Origin: Bacilli bacterium | Lineage (GTDB): Bacteria; Bacillota_I; Bacilli_A; RF39; UBA660 | DNA length: 64,000 bases | Assembly (NCBI GenBank): GCA_036342255.1 | Contig: JAZAUS010000008.1 | Span: forward strand, 7,661-71,660 | Direction of reading: 5' to 3' | Shown: one piece after another, positions 3,177 through 64,000 of the stretch | Layout: each line of letters starts with the position of its first letter | Numbering within the stretch: position 1 is the first letter of the stretch | Notes under the pieces: generated by a model | The model's input: the letters and a program-made list of their open reading frames with translations, nothing else | Told to the model about the DNA's origin: nothing | Database searches by the model: none | Program-made: the position numbers and the translations under genes

Positions 3177-4675
3177 TCGCTATGGCCTCCTATTTGCTTA
3201 TTTCTCTCTATGGTTCTAGCTCCTTTTATATAATTCATTCCTCTTAGGATAGAGTTTTTACCATATTTATTTTTTATGTCGATAATAACTTTTTGTAGTT
3301 CTCTTTCTTTTATTTCTTCTTCTTTTTGTTTTTTATTAATATTATCTATTTTACATAGATCTGTAAAGATGTCATATTGTTTATATATTACTTTACTATT
3401 TGCTTTTTCTTCAGTTATGAGGTTATTAAAAGAGATAGTTATTCTTCTTACTAATAGGTGTTTATTAGTAATTTTTTTATATAGTTCAACAATTTTTTTG
3501 GTGATGAGGCTTGAGGATGAGGTTTGGTGATCTATTCTGATGGTTCCATGAGATGGTTTGGGTACTCTTCTTCCGTAATAGTCTTTGGTTATTTCTCCTA
3601 TATAGTTATCTCTTATGTTAGGGCTTGATAAGTTATTTATATCATAATTTATGGTTAAGACTATTTGGTCTGTTACTAGTTTTCTGGATACTAGTTCTAA
3701 TGTTAGTAGATCGGTCATTTCTTTTACTATTAATAGGGCTTGTTCATAAGTATAGGGCTCTGGTAAGACTTGGCCGGATGAGATACTGTTAGAACTTGGG
3801 CGATAAGCTTTTATTTCTTTTATGGTTACGGGTTCCCAGCCCCAGGCATGATCTATTAATAGTTCGGCATTGATACCGAATAGTTTATATAGTAAGTCTT
3901 CATTGTTAAGAGAGCATCTAGCTATATCTCCCATGGTATAGAGATTATTTTGGGTTAATTTATTATAGTAGCCACTTCCTACTCTCCAGAAGTCTGTTAG
4001 GGGCTGATGATTCCATAATAGTTTTCGATACAGCATTTCATCTAGACAAGCTATTCTTACGCCTTTATTATTGGCTTTTTTATGTTTGGCTACGATATCC
4101 ATGGCTACTTTGGCTAGATACATATTAGTTCCTATTCCTGCTGTTGCAGTTATTCCAGTGGTGTCATAGACATCATTTAATATTCTTGTGATAAACTCTG
4201 TTGGTTTCATTTTATTGAATGTTAGATAAGGAGTTATATCACAGAAGACTTCATCTATGGAATAGACATGGATATCATTTGGTGATAGATATTTTAGATA
4301 GATATTATATATTTTGGTACTATACTCTACATATTTAGCCATTCTAGGAGGGGCTGTTATATAATCTAGTTTTAGATTGGGATTATTTTTTAAGTCAGAA
4401 TCTAGATATGAGGATGAGGTGAATCTTTTATATTTTGTTTTATATCTTCTTTCGTTATTTATATTCTTTACTTTTTGGATTACCTCAAATAATCTGGCTC
4501 TTCCTGGAATACCATATTGTTTTAGTGATGGGCTTACAGCTAGGCAGATAGTTTTCTCAGTTCTAGAATTATCGGCTACTACGAGATTGGTATTTAATGG
4601 ATCTAGGTGTCTTTCTACACATTCTACTGATGCATAGAAGCTTTTTAGATCGATACAGGTATATATTTTATTCAT
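3173..4675 (-). CDS. Y-family (UmuC/DinB/UvrX-like) translesion DNA polymerase
   Basis: N-terminus IDLKSFYASVECVERHLDP..LVVAD, YSIDEVFCDIT and overall 500-aa Y-family layout. LexA box in its promoter. Confidence 0.85.
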   Translation of the reverse strand: MNKIYTCIDLKSFYASVECVERHLDPLNTNLVVADNSRTEKTICLAVSPSLKQYGIPGRARLFEVIQKVKNINNERRYKTKYKRFTSSSYLDSDLKNNPNLKLDYITAPPRMAKYVEYSTKIYNIYLKYLSPNDIHVYSIDEVFCDITPYLTFNKMKPTEFITRILNDVYDTTGITATAGIGTNMYLAKVAMDIVAKHKKANNKGVRIACLDEMLYRKLLWNHQPLTDFWRVGSGYYNKLTQNNLYTMGDIARCSLNNEDLLYKLFGINAELLIDHAWGWEPVTIKEIKAYRPSSNSISSGQVLPEPYTYEQALLIVKEMTDLLTLELVSRKLVTDQIVLTINYDINNLSSPNIRDNYIGEITKDYYGRRVPKPSHGTIRIDHQTSSSSLITKKIVELYKKITNKHLLVRRITISFNNLITEEKANSKVIYKQYDIFTDLCKIDNINKKQKEEEIKERELQKVIIDIKNKYGKNSILRGMNYIKGARTIERNKQIGGHSE

Positions 4676-4693
4676 AGACTCGCCTCACTTCAT

Positions 4694-4707
4694 AGAACAC
4701 TTGTTCG
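4694..4707 (-). promoter_or_regulatory. LexA (Cheo/SOS) box
   Basis: Minus strand CGAACAAGTGTTCT matches the Firmicute CGAAC-N4-GTTC consensus, 9 nt downstream of the -10 of the polymerase promoter. Confidence 0.75.
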
Positions 4708-4715
4708 TCTATATA

Positions 4716-4744
4716 AGTATATCAATCTATTGGTGGTTAGTCAA
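4716..4744 (-). promoter_or_regulatory. Sigma-A promoter of the Y-family polymerase/yolD operon
   Basis: TTGACT-17-TATACT. Confidence 0.6.
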
Positions 4745-4756
4745 TATTATTTTAAA

Positions 4757-4789
4757 TAAAAAAATCCAGAATTAAATCTGGATTTTTTT
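4757..4789. terminator. Bidirectional intrinsic terminator
   Basis: A7-ATCCAGA-N6-TCTGGAT-T6. Confidence 0.65.
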
Positions 4790-5252
4790 AGTAATTATCA
4801 ATTTCTTCTAATTTTTCTTCTAGAAGTTTTATTGATTCTTTGTTGTAAATAGATTTCTTTTTACCTTTATATTTAATTGTATATGGTTCATAGTTTTTAG
4901 GATTATTTATATCTTCTTTAGAGATTAAATCATTTAATAAATCTTTTAATTCTTTAGTAGTACTACTATTAATAGTTTTATTATAAATCTCTTTTCCTTT
5001 ATAATCATAATGACCACCTTGAATGGAAGCATTGTAACTATCTTCTAACTTTTTAATACTTTTTTTGTTGGGATTGAATTCATAGTATACACTGGTATTA
5101 CTACCTCCATCATTTTGCATAGTAAGATATTTTAAATCTGTAGTAATTGTATATATATTATTATCTGATTCTTTGATTAATACTTTTATACCTATAAAAG
5201 TAAAGATGATAATTAATATAATGATAAATAATATAATTAGTTTCTTTTTCAT
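4788..5252 (-). CDS. Membrane-anchored/secreted hypothetical protein
   Basis: 154 aa with an N-terminal hydrophobic helix (KKLIILFIIILIIIFTFIGI); the rest is hydrophilic and Lys/Asn rich. Confidence 0.45.
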   Translation of the reverse strand: MKKKLIILFIIILIIIFTFIGIKVLIKESDNNIYTITTDLKYLTMQNDGGSNTSVYYEFNPNKKSIKKLEDSYNASIQGGHYDYKGKEIYNKTINSSTTKELKDLLNDLISKEDINNPKNYEPYTIKYKGKKKSIYNKESIKLLEEKLEEIDNY

Positions 5253-13237: not shown

Positions 13238-13864
13238 TTATTTTTCTGGGTTTATGTTAAATAAATATTTATCTGGTAATAGTTGGAATTGGTCATCACT
13301 TTTACTAAAGTGATGATCTTGTTTATCTTCTATATATACTTTTATTCTATTAGTTTCTATAGCTTTTAATAGATCTATATAATCTATAGATTGGTCATAT
13401 TCTCCATATATAAATTTAATAGATTCTCCTTTAAAGGATAGAGCTCCTTCTTTAGTTTTATGATAATTATACATTAGGGGACCATTTACTAGAGCCATTC
13501 TTTTTATTTTAGGATATTTATATCCATACCAGGCTCCTATTAGAGCACCATTGGAGAATCCTAAATAATATATTTTATAGTCTTTAAATATGTTAGCATA
13601 GTCTTCTATAATAGTCATGGCGTTATCTAAAGGGTTATGTCCATCAAAGGGATTTGATGAACATATAACACTACAGTTATATTTATTATTTAATCTTTTA
13701 GCCATCTTTATATATTTATTATTATATCCATATAAAGATCCATTCTGACCTGCTTTAATAAATACTATAGTATTATTACCATTTATTATTCCATAATCTA
13801 TTATTATATTATTCATAAACTTACTATGTATTTCTTTATCAAATACTAATTCTTCTTTAGACAT
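13238..13864 (-). CDS. Alpha/beta-hydrolase fold protein
   Basis: Start reset to MSKEELV (AGGTGA-N5-ATG at 13864). Nucleophile elbow GFSNG, then GEYDQS and QDHHF as candidate Asp/His. Confidence 0.55.
   Translation of the reverse strand: MSKEELVFDKEIHSKFMNNIIIDYGIINGNNTIVFIKAGQNGSLYGYNNKYIKMAKRLNNKYNCSVICSSNPFDGHNPLDNAMTIIEDYANIFKDYKIYYLGFSNGALIGAWYGYKYPKIKRMALVNGPLMYNYHKTKEGALSFKGESIKFIYGEYDQSIDYIDLLKAIETNRIKVYIEDKQDHHFSKSDDQFQLLPDKYLFNINPEK
13259..13306 (+). repeat. Direct repeat copy B (inside the 3' coding end of hydrolase gene 13238-13864)
   Basis: Partner of 10205-10251. The two copies bracket the 3-kb XRE/ImmA/DUF4417 module. Confidence 0.7.
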
Positions 13865-24350: not shown

Positions 24351-24360
24351 ATTATAACAT
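24351..24360 (-). promoter_or_regulatory. Extended -10 promoter (ATGTTATAAT) of the five-gene MazG..acidic operon
   Basis: Follows terminator 24444-24468. The -10 ends 17 nt before the ATG, so the leader is very short and begins at the SD. Confidence 0.55.
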
Positions 24361-24443
24361 AAGATTACAGTTTAACCGTAATTTCTAGTTCTATAATTTT
24401 CATTTTGCTCTCTTCCACCCTGATAGAACAATATACACTACAT

Positions 24444-24468
24444 AAAAAGGCGCGTTATTTATGCGCCA
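24444..24468 (-). terminator. Terminator after the HNH endonuclease gene
   Basis: GGCGC-N9-GCGCC + U5. Confidence 0.65.
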
Positions 24469-24481
24469 TTTTATTAATTTG

Positions 24482-32191: not shown

Positions 32192-32378
32192 GGGATTACC
32201 TCTTCTATGTGGTTTGGTTATGTATTATAGCATAAAATAAGAAATGGTTAAAGTCTTCATATGTTTAGTATAATAATAATTATACTAAAATACTTGACTT
32301 TAACTATGTTTTTAGTGTAAAATATCTACTACAAACAAAGGGATTTACTTTTAGAAATATATTTGGTATAATTTCTTT

Positions 32379-32508
32379 GTAAGATAGATATAATATTATT
32401 GTAGATATTATTATATCTATGTCTTGGTCTATCAAATTAATTTGTTGGATCAAACCCGTGTTGGCGCCAAGCGCCGCTTAAAAAGGCAACCTTTATGGTT
32501 GCTTTTTT
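32379..32508 (+). ncRNA. sRNA candidate, diverged third member of the same family
   Basis: Promoter TTTACT-17-TGGTATAAT (32344-32372). AT-rich hairpin, GTTGGCGC-CAA-GCGCC (compensatory vs GTTGGTGC-TTT-GCACC). Terminator GCAACC-N5-GGTTGC + U6. Confidence 0.5.
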
Positions 32509-33016
32509 AATGATCAAAATCTATTCTATGTTCAAAACCATCAAATCTTAGAAAAATTGATTCTAATATTACTCCTAATATTTCTTGACCATTATCATAA
32601 TACATTACTATTTTATCAAATTTGTTAAAATAATTTTCATTATCTTTTATCATTTTATTGATTTCAGATGATAGTTGTTGTTTTAGTATCATTCCACTAT
32701 CTGTATATCTTTTATCAATAATAATCGTTTTATATTTTACTGGTATTCTTCTGGAAAATTGGTATATGGCATTGAAAATGCTTTTCCTGGTAGCAATTTT
32801 AAAGTTTTTGTAGTCTCCTCTTTTCATGATTAAGTCAGCCATATGAATCATATTAGTATATCCAATTTTTTCTAATCTATTATTTAGTTTATTTAGTTCA
32901 GTCATAATATCATCATTATGCTCATGAAAAGTGAATGATACACCGTAAAGTTCTGATGCACCTTTACCAAATCCAAATTCTCCTGTTTCATCTACAAATA
33001 TATTTAGTCTTTTCAT
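32507..33016 (-). CDS. DUF3800 family protein
   Basis: Start reset to MKRLNIF (AGAGGTGAA-N5-ATG). N-terminus LNIFVDETGEFG is the DUF3800 D-E-x-G signature. Confidence 0.6.
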   Translation of the reverse strand: MKRLNIFVDETGEFGFGKGASELYGVSFTFHEHNDDIMTELNKLNNRLEKIGYTNMIHMADLIMKRGDYKNFKIATRKSIFNAIYQFSRRIPVKYKTIIIDKRYTDSGMILKQQLSSEINKMIKDNENYFNKFDKIVMYYDNGQEILGVILESIFLRFDGFEHRIDFDH

Positions 33017-36969: not shown

Positions 36970-37173
36970 TTATTTATCATCTTCATAGTAATAATCATCA
37001 TCTTCTAGATCTTCTTCTTCAAAGTTAGATGAATTATACTCACCTTTTTTTATTAGTTCTTTTTGATAATCGTCTAGATCATTATTTTCTTGTTCTTCAA
37101 GATATTTGAATAAACCAAAAGCTTTAGATCTTTTGGTTTGGTCATTACTAAATAAATCGTTAAATAATCCCAT
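36970..37173 (-). CDS. Small acidic protein with NFEEEDLEDDDYYYEDDK tail
   Basis: 67 aa with GAAGGAGAAATTT-ATG and TGATATAAT promoter. Paralogous fragment at 30194-30436. Confidence 0.55.
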   Translation of the reverse strand: MGLFNDLFSNDQTKRSKAFGLFKYLEEQENNDLDDYQKELIKKGEYNSSNFEEEDLEDDDYYYEDDK

Positions 37174-37266
37174 AAATTTCTCCTTCTATAGTTATATTAT
37201 ATCATAATAATAAAAAATTTTTAATTTATATATTGACATATGTTTTTAATTTGGTATAATGTTTAT

Positions 37267-37372
37267 AGATAGATTTAATATCTATCTACCGATTTATTAG
37301 TTTATCTAATAAATCAACATTAGTTGGTGCTTTGCACCACACAAAAAAACATCATTTATGTGATGTTTTTTT
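37267..37372 (+). ncRNA. sRNA candidate, family copy 1 (three hairpins + intrinsic terminator)
   Basis: Promoter TTGACA-16-TGGTATAAT (37233-37260). Hairpins TAGATAGAT/ATCTATCTA, GATTTATTAG/CTAATAAATC, GGTGC/GCACC. Terminator ACATCA-N6-TGATGT + U7. Confidence 0.6.
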
Positions 37373-37487
37373 GTTTTGTATTAGTATAATTTAGATTTTT
37401 TCTATTTTAATAGTTACACTTATAAAAATTTTTTAAAAAAATTAATTTTTATATTGACATATATTTTTAATTTGGTATAATGTTTAT

Positions 37488-37593
37488 AGATAGATTTAAT
37501 ATCTATCTACCGATTTATTAGTTTATCTAATAAGTCAACATTAGTTGGTGCTTTGCACCACACAAAAAAACATCATTTATGTGATGTTTTTTT
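37488..37593 (+). ncRNA. sRNA candidate, family copy 2 (tandem duplicate, 221-nt period)
   Basis: Near-identical to copy 1, including the promoter (37454-37481). Its one in-RNA substitution, A to G in the hairpin-2 arm, keeps pairing as G-U. Confidence 0.6.
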
Positions 37594-37631
37594 GTTTTGT
37601 AGTTCTATTTATTTATAATATTTTTGCAATT

Positions 37632-37661
37632 AAAAATCATCATTATATGATGATTATTTTT
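37632..37661. terminator. Bidirectional terminator shared by the 4-TM gene and the convergent sRNA genes
   Basis: AAAA-ATCATCAT-TAT-ATGATGAT-TATTTTT, overlapping the stop of 37654..38265. Confidence 0.6.
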
Positions 37662-38265
37662 CTTTATAAAATGTTGTTAAAAACAAACAAAATCTGTATA
37701 GTATTATTTCACTTTGATTTATGGCGTAGTTTTTAGCAATTGCTTTTCCACCTATTGTTAGGGCTGATACGATAGCGGTTGATAATAGTGATATTATTAA
37801 AAAATTAGTATTTAATGTTTCACTTAAGGCACTTGCTATAGATATACAGCAAGCTCCTGATATTACTCCACATATATCTCCTATTACATCATTTAAGAAA
37901 CTAGCTACTTTATCTGTATTCTTTTTTAATTGTACAGCTAATTTAGATCCTTTTACTTTTCTAGCAGCCATTGAATTAAAAACACTTAGGTTAGAGGCTG
38001 TTACAGCTACTCCTATCATATCAAAAAATATTCCTAAGAAGATAAAGAATAATAATAGGATTATTCCAAAAATAATTGGTATATTTGGTAATAAGGTTTC
38101 TGATGCTAAAGACATTAATAAAGATATTATAAAGGCTATAGCAATTATTTTTATTATCCAATTATAATCTATTAGATTTTTTTTCTTGTTCTTCTCTATT
38201 ATTTTTAAATTTTTTAATTCTTCTTTTTTTATTTGTTTATTATTATTCAATTTGATCCCTCTCAT
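37654..38265 (-). CDS. 4-TM membrane protein immediately downstream of the large ncRNA (OapA-like position, unverified)
   Basis: About 200 aa. Basic N-terminus, four TM helices, repeated D(M/V)IG motifs (FFDMIGVAV, LNDVIGDICGVISG). The ATG at 38265 lacks an SD, so GAGAGGG-N6-TTG at 38250 is the more likely start. Confidence 0.6.
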   Translation of the reverse strand: MRGIKLNNNKQIKKEELKNLKIIEKNKKKNLIDYNWIIKIIAIAFIISLLMSLASETLLPNIPIIFGIILLLFFIFLGIFFDMIGVAVTASNLSVFNSMAARKVKGSKLAVQLKKNTDKVASFLNDVIGDICGVISGACCISIASALSETLNTNFLIISLLSTAIVSALTIGGKAIAKNYAINQSEIILYRFCLFLTTFYKEK

Positions 38266-38268
38266 AAT

Positions 38269-38794
38269 AAAAACTAGATATTATCTAGTTCTTTTTTTAT
38301 TAATGGCTATTTATACAGTAAACTTTGAATCTTAGGTCAAGTAGGATTTCCCTTACCTTTACAAATCGTTACCAATTTGCGGTTCCCCTTTAAAAAGATA
38401 AATATAGTATCACTAACTATATGACTTGATTACCACTTAGAATCCACTGCAATCCCGTACAAATCATTCTAGGAGTTTTCCTCACCACTGTTTATTACTA
38501 GTTCTCTTTTGCAAATATAATTTCAAGATGCACATATATATTGGCCAATTGATATATGTGTATTCATCTATCCCAGTATATTCACTCAAGACAAGCATGT
38601 TATAAAAATATAACTACAAATCAAATATTGGATTTAACACTATATGCCGTTATAGGAGCCCAATATCTTCCCTTTCCAATTCCACCCTAAGCTGGGCGCA
38701 AAAAGCAGATACTAGAAAGCATTTATGCTCGTTAGTGGATTTTTAGCCCCACCTTCGTAATAAAGGGAATGACTAGAATAATGTGCCATTAACT
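38269..38794 (-). ncRNA. Large structured ncRNA candidate (~525 nt); OLE-like synteny, family unverified
   Basis: Consensus promoter 38801-38829 and terminal hairpin CTAGATAATATCTAG+U5 (38269-38291). No ORF >=60 aa in any frame. G/C-rich runs and many local helices. RNase P, tmRNA and SRP signatures absent. Confidence 0.6.
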
Positions 38795-38800
38795 GGTGTA

Positions 38801-38829
38801 ATTATAGCATAAATATAGGATTTTGTCAA
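38801..38829 (-). promoter_or_regulatory. Promoter of the large ncRNA
   Basis: TTGACA-17-(TGC)TATAAT, perfect -35/-10 with an extended -10. Confidence 0.7.
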
Positions 38830-38885: not shown

Positions 38886-39116
38886 CTATTTTTTATTTAA
38901 AGACTCTATCTTTTGTAATTCAAAGCGATATTTTTGACCATTTTTGTTTACTTCTTCTAAAAACATATTAATGGGTCTAGCATATAGTAATCCATCTCCG
39001 TATAAGGCTCTATATATAACTAATTCTTCGTCTGTTTCACTATGATAGGCTATGTCTTCTACAAGATATAAATCTCCTTTGAAGTGCTTATATATTCCTT
39101 TAATTTTTAATTTCAT
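38886..39116 (-). CDS. DUF1653 family protein
   Basis: [45 protein letters not shown] matches the DUF1653 pattern. Confidence 0.7.
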
Positions 39117-40383: not shown

Positions 40384-40414
40384 AAAAGAGGAAAATTATT
40401 TTCCTCTTTTTTTA
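40382..40414. terminator. Bidirectional terminator between convergent genes
   Basis: A6-AGAGGAAAAT/ATTTTCCTCT-T7. Confidence 0.7.
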
Positions 40415-41058
40415 GTTTCTATTATATTTGTAACATCTTTATTAAAGAATTTTGTTAAGATGTCTACTTCTTTATTATCAATTTCATTTGTTGATATAAA
40501 TCTTTTAGAATCTTCTATTGATTTAATAGCTATTTTTCTTATATCTTCGTAGTTAGTATCTTTATCTATTTCTTTAATGGCTATTAAATCTTTAATAAGA
40601 TATTCAAATCTACCTAATTTTATAAGATATACTTTATCATTATTAGTAATAGTTATTCTATCAGGATCATATTTATCATATTCACAATTTATTATATAAT
40701 TATTACATTCATAAATACTTTCTTGATTTTCATAGCACATTGTGCTCTTTATTAGCATAGCTAAGTATTCTTGTAGAATATGTTGGCTGTTTTTCACTAT
40801 ATAATTTTTAGCTTGTTCATCGTCTTCATCTTTTGATAAGGCTTGTTCAAGCTTTTGTAAATCTTTTTTTAAGTCTTCTTCTATTGTTAATATATCCCCT
40901 GCATAAGTATATAAATCATTTTGTTCGATAGTTTTTTCAATAGTTGTATTTGATGGTTTGTTTTGGCAACCTGATATGAATGGTGTTGTGGTTGTTAAGA
41001 CAAAGGCTATAGCTAATGCGTTAGTATATACTTTTAAATTCTTAATATTTTTGGCCAT
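40396..41058 (-). CDS. Lipoprotein, unknown function
   Basis: Signal peptide with lipobox ..PFISGC. Confidence 0.55.
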   Translation of the reverse strand: MAKNIKNLKVYTNALAIAFVLTTTTPFISGCQNKPSNTTIEKTIEQNDLYTYAGDILTIEEDLKKDLQKLEQALSKDEDDEQAKNYIVKNSQHILQEYLAMLIKSTMCYENQESIYECNNYIINCEYDKYDPDRITITNNDKVYLIKLGRFEYLIKDLIAIKEIDKDTNYEDIRKIAIKSIEDSKRFISTNEIDNKEVDILTKFFNKDVTNIIETKKRGK

Positions 41059-41144
41059 AATAAAAACCCCCTCTCAAAAACGTTTACTATTATACACTTT
41101 TTGTTAATTTTGTCAAGTTTTTATTGAGATTATGGGGGTTATGA

Positions 41145-62738: not shown

Positions 62739-64000
62739 TTATAATTCTTTTAATTTTTTGTAGATTTTTACCATGGCATAGGTATCTAGTTCACAATATT
62801 TTAATAAATTATTTCTTACTTCTTCTTGTTCTTTTTTTGATAAATTATTTAGATTGGCATATGTTGACATGGCTTCTTGTCCGTTGTGAACTTGATCTAA
62901 GTTATGGTAGTCTAAGCTGGGATCATTGGGAAATAGAGCTGGTAAGACATATTTAATAGAATATGATCCATCCATTTCTTTGGTATAATAATCTCTATCT
63001 TTAAATGGGATCATTAAATCCTTTATATTATAATATATATTCATTAGATGCTCTGTTAAGTCTGGATAGAGATTAGCTAGATTTTTGATAACCATTTTTT
63101 CAAACATCATATTATAGGCTAGAACGCAGGTATCTTTAGGGATATCCTTTATTAGGCTTTCAGCTAGTGTTCTTCTTGGATCAATACCTGAAGATGCTAA
63201 AAATTCTTTATGCATTAGTTTACTATTTTCTTTTTCTAGATAATGAAGTGAGTATTGAAATGGTATTTGCATATATGGTTTTATACCATCATATTGAGGA
63301 ATAGATTGTTGATAGGTTTCAAAATCTAAAAAATATAAGGGGTATGATAAAGTAGATAAAAAATCTTTTATTTTATTTTTATTGATAAATGGGGCTTTAT
63401 CATATAGTGAGTATTCTATTTGCTCTTTATACTTCCAATTGATATCTTCATCTAATAAATCTTTATAATCATATAAGCCCTTATGATATAAATCAAACTT
63501 GGTACTGCTACGCATTCCTTTTATATTAAAAATATTATTAGCTGGTAGCTGTTTGGTACAGTATTTAAAGAAGGGGCAATTATATGGTGTTACACAGTGA
63601 ATACCAATATCATCTTTTGGTTCTTCTTTTGTTTTCATATAATCATTAATATAATTAATTTTTTCTTCTACTTCTTTTTGTTTTGATAGAGATATATCTG
63701 TAACATCTTTAATTATAAACAATTTGTTTAAGTCTAAATCTCCATCTCTTTCATAATCGCTATTAATATAAACTATACATGTTTTGGTTATATTATGACC
63801 TAATTTTTTTAGGACATATGTTTGATATGAGATATCATCTAGGTAGATATCTTTTACTTCTGTAGAACTTTTTACTTCATATATTTCATAATTATTATTA
63901 TTCTTTTTTAATATATCGATACTGCAGAAGTTATTGTTATAGGAAAAAGAAGCTTCTGTTATGATGATATTATCTTTTTCTAGAGCTTTGTTAGTTTCAT
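62739..64000 (-). CDS. DUF2779 (RecB-like nuclease with Cys cluster) protein; 5' end beyond window
   Basis: The frame stays open upstream of the ORF-track TTG (63722) to the window edge (..CSIDILKK..YEIYEVKSS..DDISYQTYVLKKLG..). GIHCVTPYNCPFFKYC Cys cluster. Confidence 0.6.
   Translation of the reverse strand, partial: ETNKALEKDNIIITEASFSYNNNFCSIDILKKNNNNYEIYEVKSSTEVKDIYLDDISYQTYVLKKLGHNITKTCIVYINSDYERDGDLDLNKLFIIKDVTDISLSKQKEVEEKINYINDYMKTKEEPKDDIGIHCVTPYNCPFFKYCTKQLPANNIFNIKGMRSSTKFDLYHKGLYDYKDLLDEDINWKYKEQIEYSLYDKAPFINKNKIKDFLSTLSYPLYFLDFETYQQSIPQYDGIKPYMQIPFQYSLHYLEKENSKLMHKEFLASSGIDPRRTLAESLIKDIPKDTCVLAYNMMFEKMVIKNLANLYPDLTEHLMNIYYNIKDLMIPFKDRDYYTKEMDGSYSIKYVLPALFPNDPSLDYHNLDQVHNGQEAMSTYANLNNLSKKEQEEVRNNLLKYCELDTYAMVKIYKKLKEL

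Follow-up and report, generated by a model that had tools for sequence, protein, structure and literature searches.

Tandem RNA genes downstream of oapA are probable non-coding paralogues of a DUF3800-linked RNA

In the 64 kb stretch of DNA analysed here (the window), two near-identical units stand one behind the other between oapA and the gene for a small acidic protein. What do these units encode, and to which known RNAs or elements are they related? The window has a G+C content of 22-30%, and its sequence is also present in bovine rumen metagenomes. A repeat search delimited the direct repeat to 37200-37387 and 37421-37608 with a spacing of 221 nt; Tandem Repeats Finder did not report it, most likely because the repeat covers less than two full periods. 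From the -35 box to the terminator tail, the units (37233-37380 and 37454-37601) are 98.6% identical and differ in two bases. By sequence, BLAST and nhmmer found these two genes, which we call W1 and W2, as the only full copies in the window. These results agree with the original prediction, which had described near-identical units with a 221-nt period. The parts of the two genes are as follows.

37233-37260, plus strand: promoter of W1 (TTGACA, 16-nt spacer, TGg-TATAAT; 12/12 consensus, extended -10)
37265-37380, plus strand: W1 RNA (predicted start ~37265-37268; 135.8 bits with covariance model R1, see below)
37266-37274/37280-37288, plus strand: hairpin 1 of W1
37291-37300/37306-37315, plus strand: hairpin 2 of W1
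37316-37324, plus strand: single-stranded linker of W1
37325-37330/37334-37339, plus strand: hairpin 3 of W1
37341-37355/37360-37374 and U tract, plus strand: terminator of W1
37381-37453: spacer between the copies, mostly unique sequence according to pairwise comparison of the units
37454-37481, plus strand: promoter of W2 (12/12 consensus, extended -10)
37486-37601, plus strand: W2 RNA, with four hairpins as in W1

A TTGACA-16 promoter and a terminator had been proposed for each copy, and both assignments were confirmed. The exact pattern TTGACA-N16-18-TATAAT occurs four times in the 64 kb window compared to 0.25 occurrences expected by chance, and the promoters of W1, W2 and the OLE RNA are among the four. 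The fourth promoter, an exact TTGACA-N16-TATAAT at 41089-41116 on the minus strand with TG before the -10 box, lies upstream of a gene for a protein of 220 aa (40396-41058). Between 36700 and 38900 there are two terminator-like sites only (37341-37374 and 37562-37595; 0.3 expected), one in each copy. W1 and W2 fold into the four hairpins that had been described (dG -42.7 kcal/mol, z about -11 each), whereas the RNA length, given before as ~105 nt, is nearer 112-115 nt. One of the two base differences (37242 G / 37463 A) is located in the promoter spacer. The other (37313 A / 37534 G) is the lone difference within the RNA and turns a U-A pair of hairpin 2 into a U-G wobble, which keeps the helix as had been noted. 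Owing to this wobble the minus-strand fold of W2 is 4 kcal/mol poorer; the minus strand of W1 folds nearly as well as its plus strand. The statement that no credible open reading frame is present also stood up. The reading frames in W1 and W2 begin with TTG only, cross hairpin 3 and the terminator, and have no ribosome-binding site in front of them. Their lengths disagree between the copies (21 vs 63 aa), and they are shortened in the homologue of a related contig (L026). A conserved small reading frame was found on neither strand of W1 or W2.

The genes on both sides of the pair are encoded on the minus strand.

38287-38805, minus strand: OLE RNA, full length (Rfam RF01071, 271.5 bits)
37654-38250, minus strand: oapA, encoding the OLE-associated membrane protein, directly downstream of the OLE RNA (4514 homologues; weak CNNM match in Pfam)
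~37630-37658, minus strand: terminator hairpin of oapA, separate from the terminators of W1 and W2
36970-37173, minus strand: gene for a small acidic protein of 67 aa, divergent from W1

The order on this strand is OLE, oapA, the acidic-protein gene, a 40-aa reading frame and an acyltransferase gene, with W1 and W2 inserted on the opposite strand between oapA and the acidic-protein gene. As had been stated, the RNA genes are thus divergent from the acidic-protein gene and convergent with the neighbouring unit. The latter, previously referred to as an "ncRNA/4-TM unit", is the ole-oapA cluster, since Rfam recognises OLE and oapA follows directly downstream. The OLE promoter (38801-38829) is a perfect consensus promoter. 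Just upstream of OLE lies a DUF1653 gene (38886-39116, minus strand), which is syntenic in the related contigs L029-L031 and L036-L038. These and the other contigs of relatives were obtained via homologues of OapA. In several related lineages the acidic protein (56-67 aa, C-terminal EEEDLEDDDYYYEDD) is encoded directly downstream of oapA, and its gene was located in L036 (3611-3808), where it begins just 14 nt past the oapA stop codon, in L030 (4661-4831) and in L026 (4803-4985). The protein has no match in Pfam or PADLOC and may belong to the ole-oapA cluster as a clade-specific component.

The original prediction had not recognised the family of the RNA, which turned out not to be an isolated orphan. 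A covariance model (R1) constructed from W1, W2 and the L026 homologue identified a third RNA gene in the window (W3), which is situated 4.8 kb from the tandem copies, was missed by BLAST and nhmmer, and faces a gene of the DUF3800 family.

32344-32372, plus strand: promoter of W3 (TTTACT, 17-nt spacer, TGg-TATAAT; TTTGGTATAAT motif in common with W1 and W2)
32379-32512, plus strand: W3 RNA, of the canonical, DUF3800-adjacent form (R1 match 32402-32514, 53.2 bits, E 3e-10)
32382-32422, plus strand: long hairpin 1 of W3
32424-32453, plus strand: hairpin 2 of W3
32462-32476, plus strand: hairpin 3 of W3, GGCGC-CAA-GCGCC, preceded by the linker AAACCCGUGUU
32478-32510, plus strand: terminator of W3
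32507-33016, minus strand: DUF3800-family gene, 169 aa, convergent (tail-to-tail) with W3

W3 folds with a dG of -47.8 kcal/mol (z -8.1), compared to -36.1 for its minus strand. Two DUF3800 homologues led to thirteen further loci (L041-L053) in metagenome assemblies of JGI and ENA, including one from a human Hadza gut. In all 13, R1 detected the RNA on the strand opposite to the DUF3800 gene and directly downstream of that gene (50-58 bits, E 1e-9 to 1e-11), which amounts to 14/14 loci when W3 is counted, in at least three gene contexts. In L041, which was read base by base, the terminator is 3 nt away from the DUF3800 stop codon. The flanking genes vary among the window, L041 and L044, and the gene-RNA pair alone is constant. 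Every canonical copy for which upstream sequence is available, including those of L041, L042, L044 and L052, has a promoter of the type TTTACT/TTTACA, 17 nt, TGgTATAAT. A second covariance model (R2), built from the DUF3800-adjacent RNAs alone, matched L026 with 55.5 bits, W1 with 48.6 bits (E 7.5e-10) and W2 with 46.9 bits, E-values ranging overall from 1e-11 to 2e-9. Because R2 contains none of the tandem copies and nevertheless matches W1, W2 and L026, the homology is reciprocal, and the tandem genes represent a diverged branch of the RNA that accompanies DUF3800 genes.

Rfam 15 returned nothing at gathering thresholds for W1, W3 or the RNAs of L041, L042, L044, L047 and L051; permissive matches (ctRNA_pT181 at 25 bits vs 56, SraB, several miRNA models) were rejected as noise. 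Weak matches of our models in the window at 4669-4791, 13628-13710 and 24354-24478, which are either terminator-hairpin combinations or located within coding sequence, were judged to be due to chance, as was a TTTGGTATAAT site at 62979. The site at 24354-24478 on the plus strand, located between two minus-strand genes, was scored with 16-21 bits by both models; in it, one hairpin is followed by another stem, closed by a long loop, and by a terminator. It is probably a chance match, the alternative being a very diverged member of the family.

The helices proposed from the two copies were also borne out, as homologues retain all four of them by compensatory changes. RNAalifold, applied to an unfitted MAFFT alignment of nine distinct sequences, predicted 35 pairs in four helices, of which 12 are compensatory, which for nine sequences is good support, short of an R-scape-grade significance test. 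In this alignment 98.7% of the cells are paired, 0/500 column shuffles reached the observed values, and slid controls gave 0-3 compensatory pairs. Thirty cells, distributed over every helix, are G-U pairs, each of which would appear as a C-A mismatch if the other strand were the RNA. Since these cells fit the promoter strand only, the structured molecule is the promoter-strand transcript. The plus strand also folds more stably than the minus strand in both W3 and W2.

The two branches of the family differ in characteristic parts. The canonical RNA of gut and rumen Bacilli comprises ~135 nt. Its hairpin 1 is long and variable but for a conserved base, its hairpin 2 (GGUCU...GGAUC) covaries, and its 3' part, GGAUCAAACCCGUGUUGGCGCCAAGCGCCGCUUAAAAA, which includes the C-rich linker, is invariant. 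W1-type RNAs, in contrast, are devoid of the 5' arm of the long hairpin 1, carry the linker AACAUUAGU and have UUU as the loop of hairpin 3. As the invariant linker and the hairpin-3 loop have been lost, W1-type RNAs may not bind the canonical partner. Their promoters are nearer to the consensus (TTGACA in the window and in the L026 lineage) than those of the canonical genes. In W3 (32384-32420) and its equivalents in L041-L044, two pairings are open to the 3' arm of hairpin 1 (AUAUCUAU), one with the 5' segment, giving a long hairpin, and one with the central GUAGAUAU, giving a short one. The long form is the minimum-energy fold, while the short form is the RNAalifold consensus and the sole form possible in W1 and W2. 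According to these fold predictions, the canonical hairpin 1 may be a two-state element.

The DUF3800 protein of the window scores 16.8 bits against Pfam PF12686, which is under the cut-off of 21 and still its best Pfam match. Of roughly 900 homologue clusters, more than 100 with 78-93% identity have 222 aa, compared to 169 aa in the window, and three of the four full-length homologues that were scanned pass the PF12686 cut-off with 25 bits. The window gene shows a clean deletion of 53 C-terminal codons that ends at the shared terminator and leaves W3 intact. It removes LFQVSDML and with it the QxxD motif, which has been named as characteristic of DUF3800 (PMC7736814). Judging from this truncation, the protein is probably inactive. 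An AlphaFold2 model of the full-length homologue P0135 has a moderate pLDDT of 67 and RNase HII/H3/H2 as best matches, and its RNase H-like fold accords with published descriptions of DUF3800 (PMC7736814, PMC10910872). PADLOC assigned neither the DUF3800 homologue nor a neighbouring protein of 384 aa to a defence system.

To which extent is the W1-type RNA shared among relatives? The contigs L025-L028, with OapA 83% identical, contain it at the same site and in the same orientation with 89% identity. L026 carries one copy; L025 has two copies that span a scaffold gap, with a junction unlike that of the window; and the contigs L027 and L028 end within the repeat. No DUF3800 gene was found within 4 kb of the copies in L025 and L026, and the DUF3800 gene nearest to W1 and W2 is 4.2 kb away and truncated. 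L029 (OapA 81%) shows a decayed remnant at 4590-4700 on the minus strand (28 bits, z -2.2) that lacks a consensus promoter. Its hairpin 1 is gone and its hairpin 3 out of register; the terminator is retained and doubles as the oapA terminator. The RNA is absent downstream of oapA in L001, L030/31 and L036-L039. Altogether, three of nine related ole-oapA lineages have a W1-type RNA, one of them as the remnant, and six are without it. Because carriers and non-carriers interleave on the OapA tree, the element appears to have been lost repeatedly or, less likely, gained, and this patchy distribution indicates that it is dispensable. A metagenome scan with OapA yielded two loci, neither of which has the RNA. 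An 18-mer from hairpin 3 had 21 matches in 185,579 species genomes, with ~17 expected by our own estimate; similarity was confined to the 18-mer itself, and all were regarded as chance matches.

Sequence variation is distributed unevenly over the W1-type RNA. Among rumen strains, no part varies more than the linker (37318 C>T, 37322 A>T, 37323 G>A). The W1-type copies are uniform in hairpin 1, and the stem variants (37313 A>G, 37363 A>G) are compatible with wobble pairing. Between the window and L026, the stems have changed mostly in a compensatory manner: one pair of hairpin 2 is U-A in W1, U-G in W2 and C-G in L026, a G-C pair of hairpin 3 is replaced by A-U in L026, and the base of the terminator changes in two pairs from AC/GU to UU/AA.

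Transcription data were available from several metatranscriptomes. In four rumen metatranscriptomes that contain the OLE RNA of this organism (X3, X6, X7, X9), no contig lies on W1 or W2, which could be explained by the loss of RNAs of ~110 nt from such libraries. X21, the one RNA-labelled run with coverage of the repeats, is labelled "METATRANSCRIPTOMIC WGS" and of ambiguous library type; over 36 kb it contains just two long contigs, which cover the acidic-protein gene and the repeats. The repeat contig crosses promoter and spacer sequence, and the sister run X38 likewise covers promoter DNA. As a few DNA fragments could give the same pattern, we did not count X21 as expression. W3-type RNA was found in the RNA runs X39 and X41, where its depth is low and it is contiguous with the neighbouring gene.

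Together, we consider it probable that W1 and W2 are independently transcribed, ~112-nt non-coding RNA paralogues of the DUF3800-linked RNA, each with a consensus promoter of the sigma-A type, that likely bind a protein. We infer that both RNAs are made and act through their conserved helices. A protein-binding role is favoured because selection acts on the helices and not on the exposed stretch, and because the family from which W1 and W2 derive is linked to a single protein family. An ancestor of the clade would have acquired a copy of the whole gene, including its promoter, in the gap that separates oapA from the acidic-protein gene, and this copy would then have lost the 5' extension of hairpin 1, the invariant linker and the hairpin-3 loop. 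Tandem duplication would have followed in at least two lineages. The RNAs might act in trans as partner, decoy or regulator of a DUF3800 nuclease or of another RNA-binding protein. That they adjoin no DUF3800 gene, and that the nearby one is truncated, speaks against DUF3800 as their partner. As far as can be judged from sequence, two copies in tandem, each under a consensus promoter, suggest that a high dose of the RNA is selected for.

It may further be speculated that the family as a whole is dedicated to one partner, the chromosomal, RNase HII-like DUF3800 protein, which is highly conserved in gut Bacilli (about 80-93% identity over more than 100 clusters), and forms one RNA-protein machine with it, the tandem copies being a derived, high-dosage offshoot that acts in trans. 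We regard this as a possible, albeit unlikely, extension. The RNA could then serve as scaffold, guide, inhibitor or substrate mimic. W1 and W2 could titrate the DUF3800 protein, which in this genome is without its catalytic C-terminus, or could have adopted a new partner.

That W1 and W2 are classic base-pairing sRNAs, whose exposed stretch would pair in trans with mRNAs, perhaps those of neighbouring genes, and alter their translation or stability, seems improbable to us. The stand-alone gene with strong promoter and intrinsic terminator, the typical size, the sibling copies and the invariant C-rich linker of the canonical form would all suit this mode of action. However, the corresponding stretch of W1 and W2, unlike the canonical linker, is the most polymorphic part among strains, and since it is also the sole sizeable single-stranded one, we do not favour target pairing. 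Duplex prediction revealed no conserved complementary site in the DUF3800 mRNAs or the 64 kb window, and exact matches to the linker complement in the window and in a few loci were the RNA genes themselves only. Of the original interpretation, the tandemly duplicated, stand-alone gene for a structured RNA was therefore retained, whereas the implied target-pairing mode is not favoured.

Slightly less probable still, in our view, is that the units are decaying copies of the DUF3800-linked RNA gene that have no function and lie beside oapA by chance. Their patchy presence with the L029 remnant and the absence from sister lineages would be expected in this case, as would the loss of the canonical linker and hairpin-3 loop and the lack of a metatranscriptome contig. 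On the other hand, the promoters are stronger than the canonical ones in the window and the L026 lineage alike, the four helices are perfect or compensated, with mostly compensatory stem changes between the window and L026, and tandem duplication took place in two lineages with different junctions. Moreover, with 88.9% identity between the window and L026, the RNA is no less conserved than the block of W2, oapA and OLE (83.3%).

Very unlikely, in our view, is a cis-acting insulator, in which bidirectional terminators and convergent promoters would shield the acidic-protein gene from ole-oapA read-through and the RNA product would be irrelevant. In several relatives without the module, the acidic-protein gene follows oapA after 14-63 nt on the same strand, and the two look co-transcribed; the terminators are symmetric (A tract, stem, T tract), and in L026 the RNA terminator is the sole terminator after oapA. 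Nevertheless, the window retains its own oapA terminator, and the covariation of hairpins 1-3, the homology to DUF3800-adjacent RNAs and the plus-strand G-U pairs would be left unexplained. Hardly credible is an element acting at the DNA level, with palindromes as protein-binding sites or ends of a mobile element. In its favour, all four helices form almost perfect inverted repeats, W1 folds nearly as well when read from the minus strand, and relatives either carry or lack the element at one fixed site. Against it, G-U pairs in every helix would turn into C-A mismatches in the other strand or a DNA cruciform, and in every member the helices are bounded precisely by promoter and terminator. Neither a target-site duplication nor a nearby transposase gene was found, and phages, plasmids and viral contigs gave no match for W1 or W3, which by this test would not belong to a mobile or phage element.

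How does the family compare with known systems? Its neighbourhood invites comparison with the OLE/OapA cluster, as in three lineages a W1-type gene comes directly after oapA. The RNA has, however, no relation to OLE in sequence or structure, and six ole-oapA lineages are without it; a paper on OLE-linked genes makes no mention of it. In type I toxin-antitoxin systems of Bacillota, such as ratA/txpA and SR4/bsrG, a convergent antisense RNA is paired with a small hydrophobic toxin. W3 and the DUF3800 gene are likewise convergent and have a bidirectional terminator in common, and because this terminator is shared, the 3' ends of their transcripts would be complementary over ~30 nt. In contrast to these systems, the partner is a 222-aa RNase H-like protein, the overlap is restricted to the terminator, and W1 and W2 overlap no gene. 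Near-identical sibling sRNA genes, some of them in tandem and each with its own promoter and terminator, are also known from Qrr, LhrC, PrrF and the csRNAs, which have a conserved single-stranded seed. W1 and W2 resemble them in being near-identical and tandem, with a promoter and terminator each; they differ in that the helices are conserved and the linker is variable, and that no regulator-binding motif is evident upstream.

The closest counterparts are found among RNAs linked to DUF3800. Weinberg et al. 2017 described eleven unrelated RNA motifs near DUF3800 genes (DUF3800-I to -XI), which occur in either orientation and in several cases have terminators, and offered no functional hypothesis (PMC5737381); our literature search found no later functional work on DUF3800-associated RNAs. 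Like these motifs, the canonical members described here are structured and covarying, adjoin a DUF3800 gene encoded on the opposite strand and have an intrinsic terminator after them. They differ in score from DUF3800-I (RF02969; 16.9 bits on W3 and 18.1 on W1, gathering score 44.2) and DUF3800-IX (RF02968; 12.2 bits vs a gathering score of 36.8), and three separate hairpins and a terminator distinguish them from the DUF3800-I consensus. The canonical family thus seems to behave like a further DUF3800-associated structure, set apart by the Rfam models, and it may equal a published motif, should any of the eleven lack an Rfam model. W1 and W2 adjoin no DUF3800 gene and, by comparison of sequences, are a derived orphan offshoot of the canonical RNA. 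DUF3800 proteins have since been found fused or linked to retron reverse transcriptases and Cas12a2-type effectors. The canonical family, with its chromosomal, housekeeping-like gene context, strict tail-to-tail layout, invariant 3' domain and variable 5' hairpin, provides a simple and well-delimited example of a DUF3800 RNA. It also comes with natural variants for testing, namely a truncated DUF3800 gene beside an intact RNA, and orphan paralogues that have lost the invariant motifs and yet possess the strongest promoters and a tandem duplication. As W3 illustrates, a covariance model of a local repeat can reveal, within one window, a diverged sibling that BLAST and nhmmer miss.
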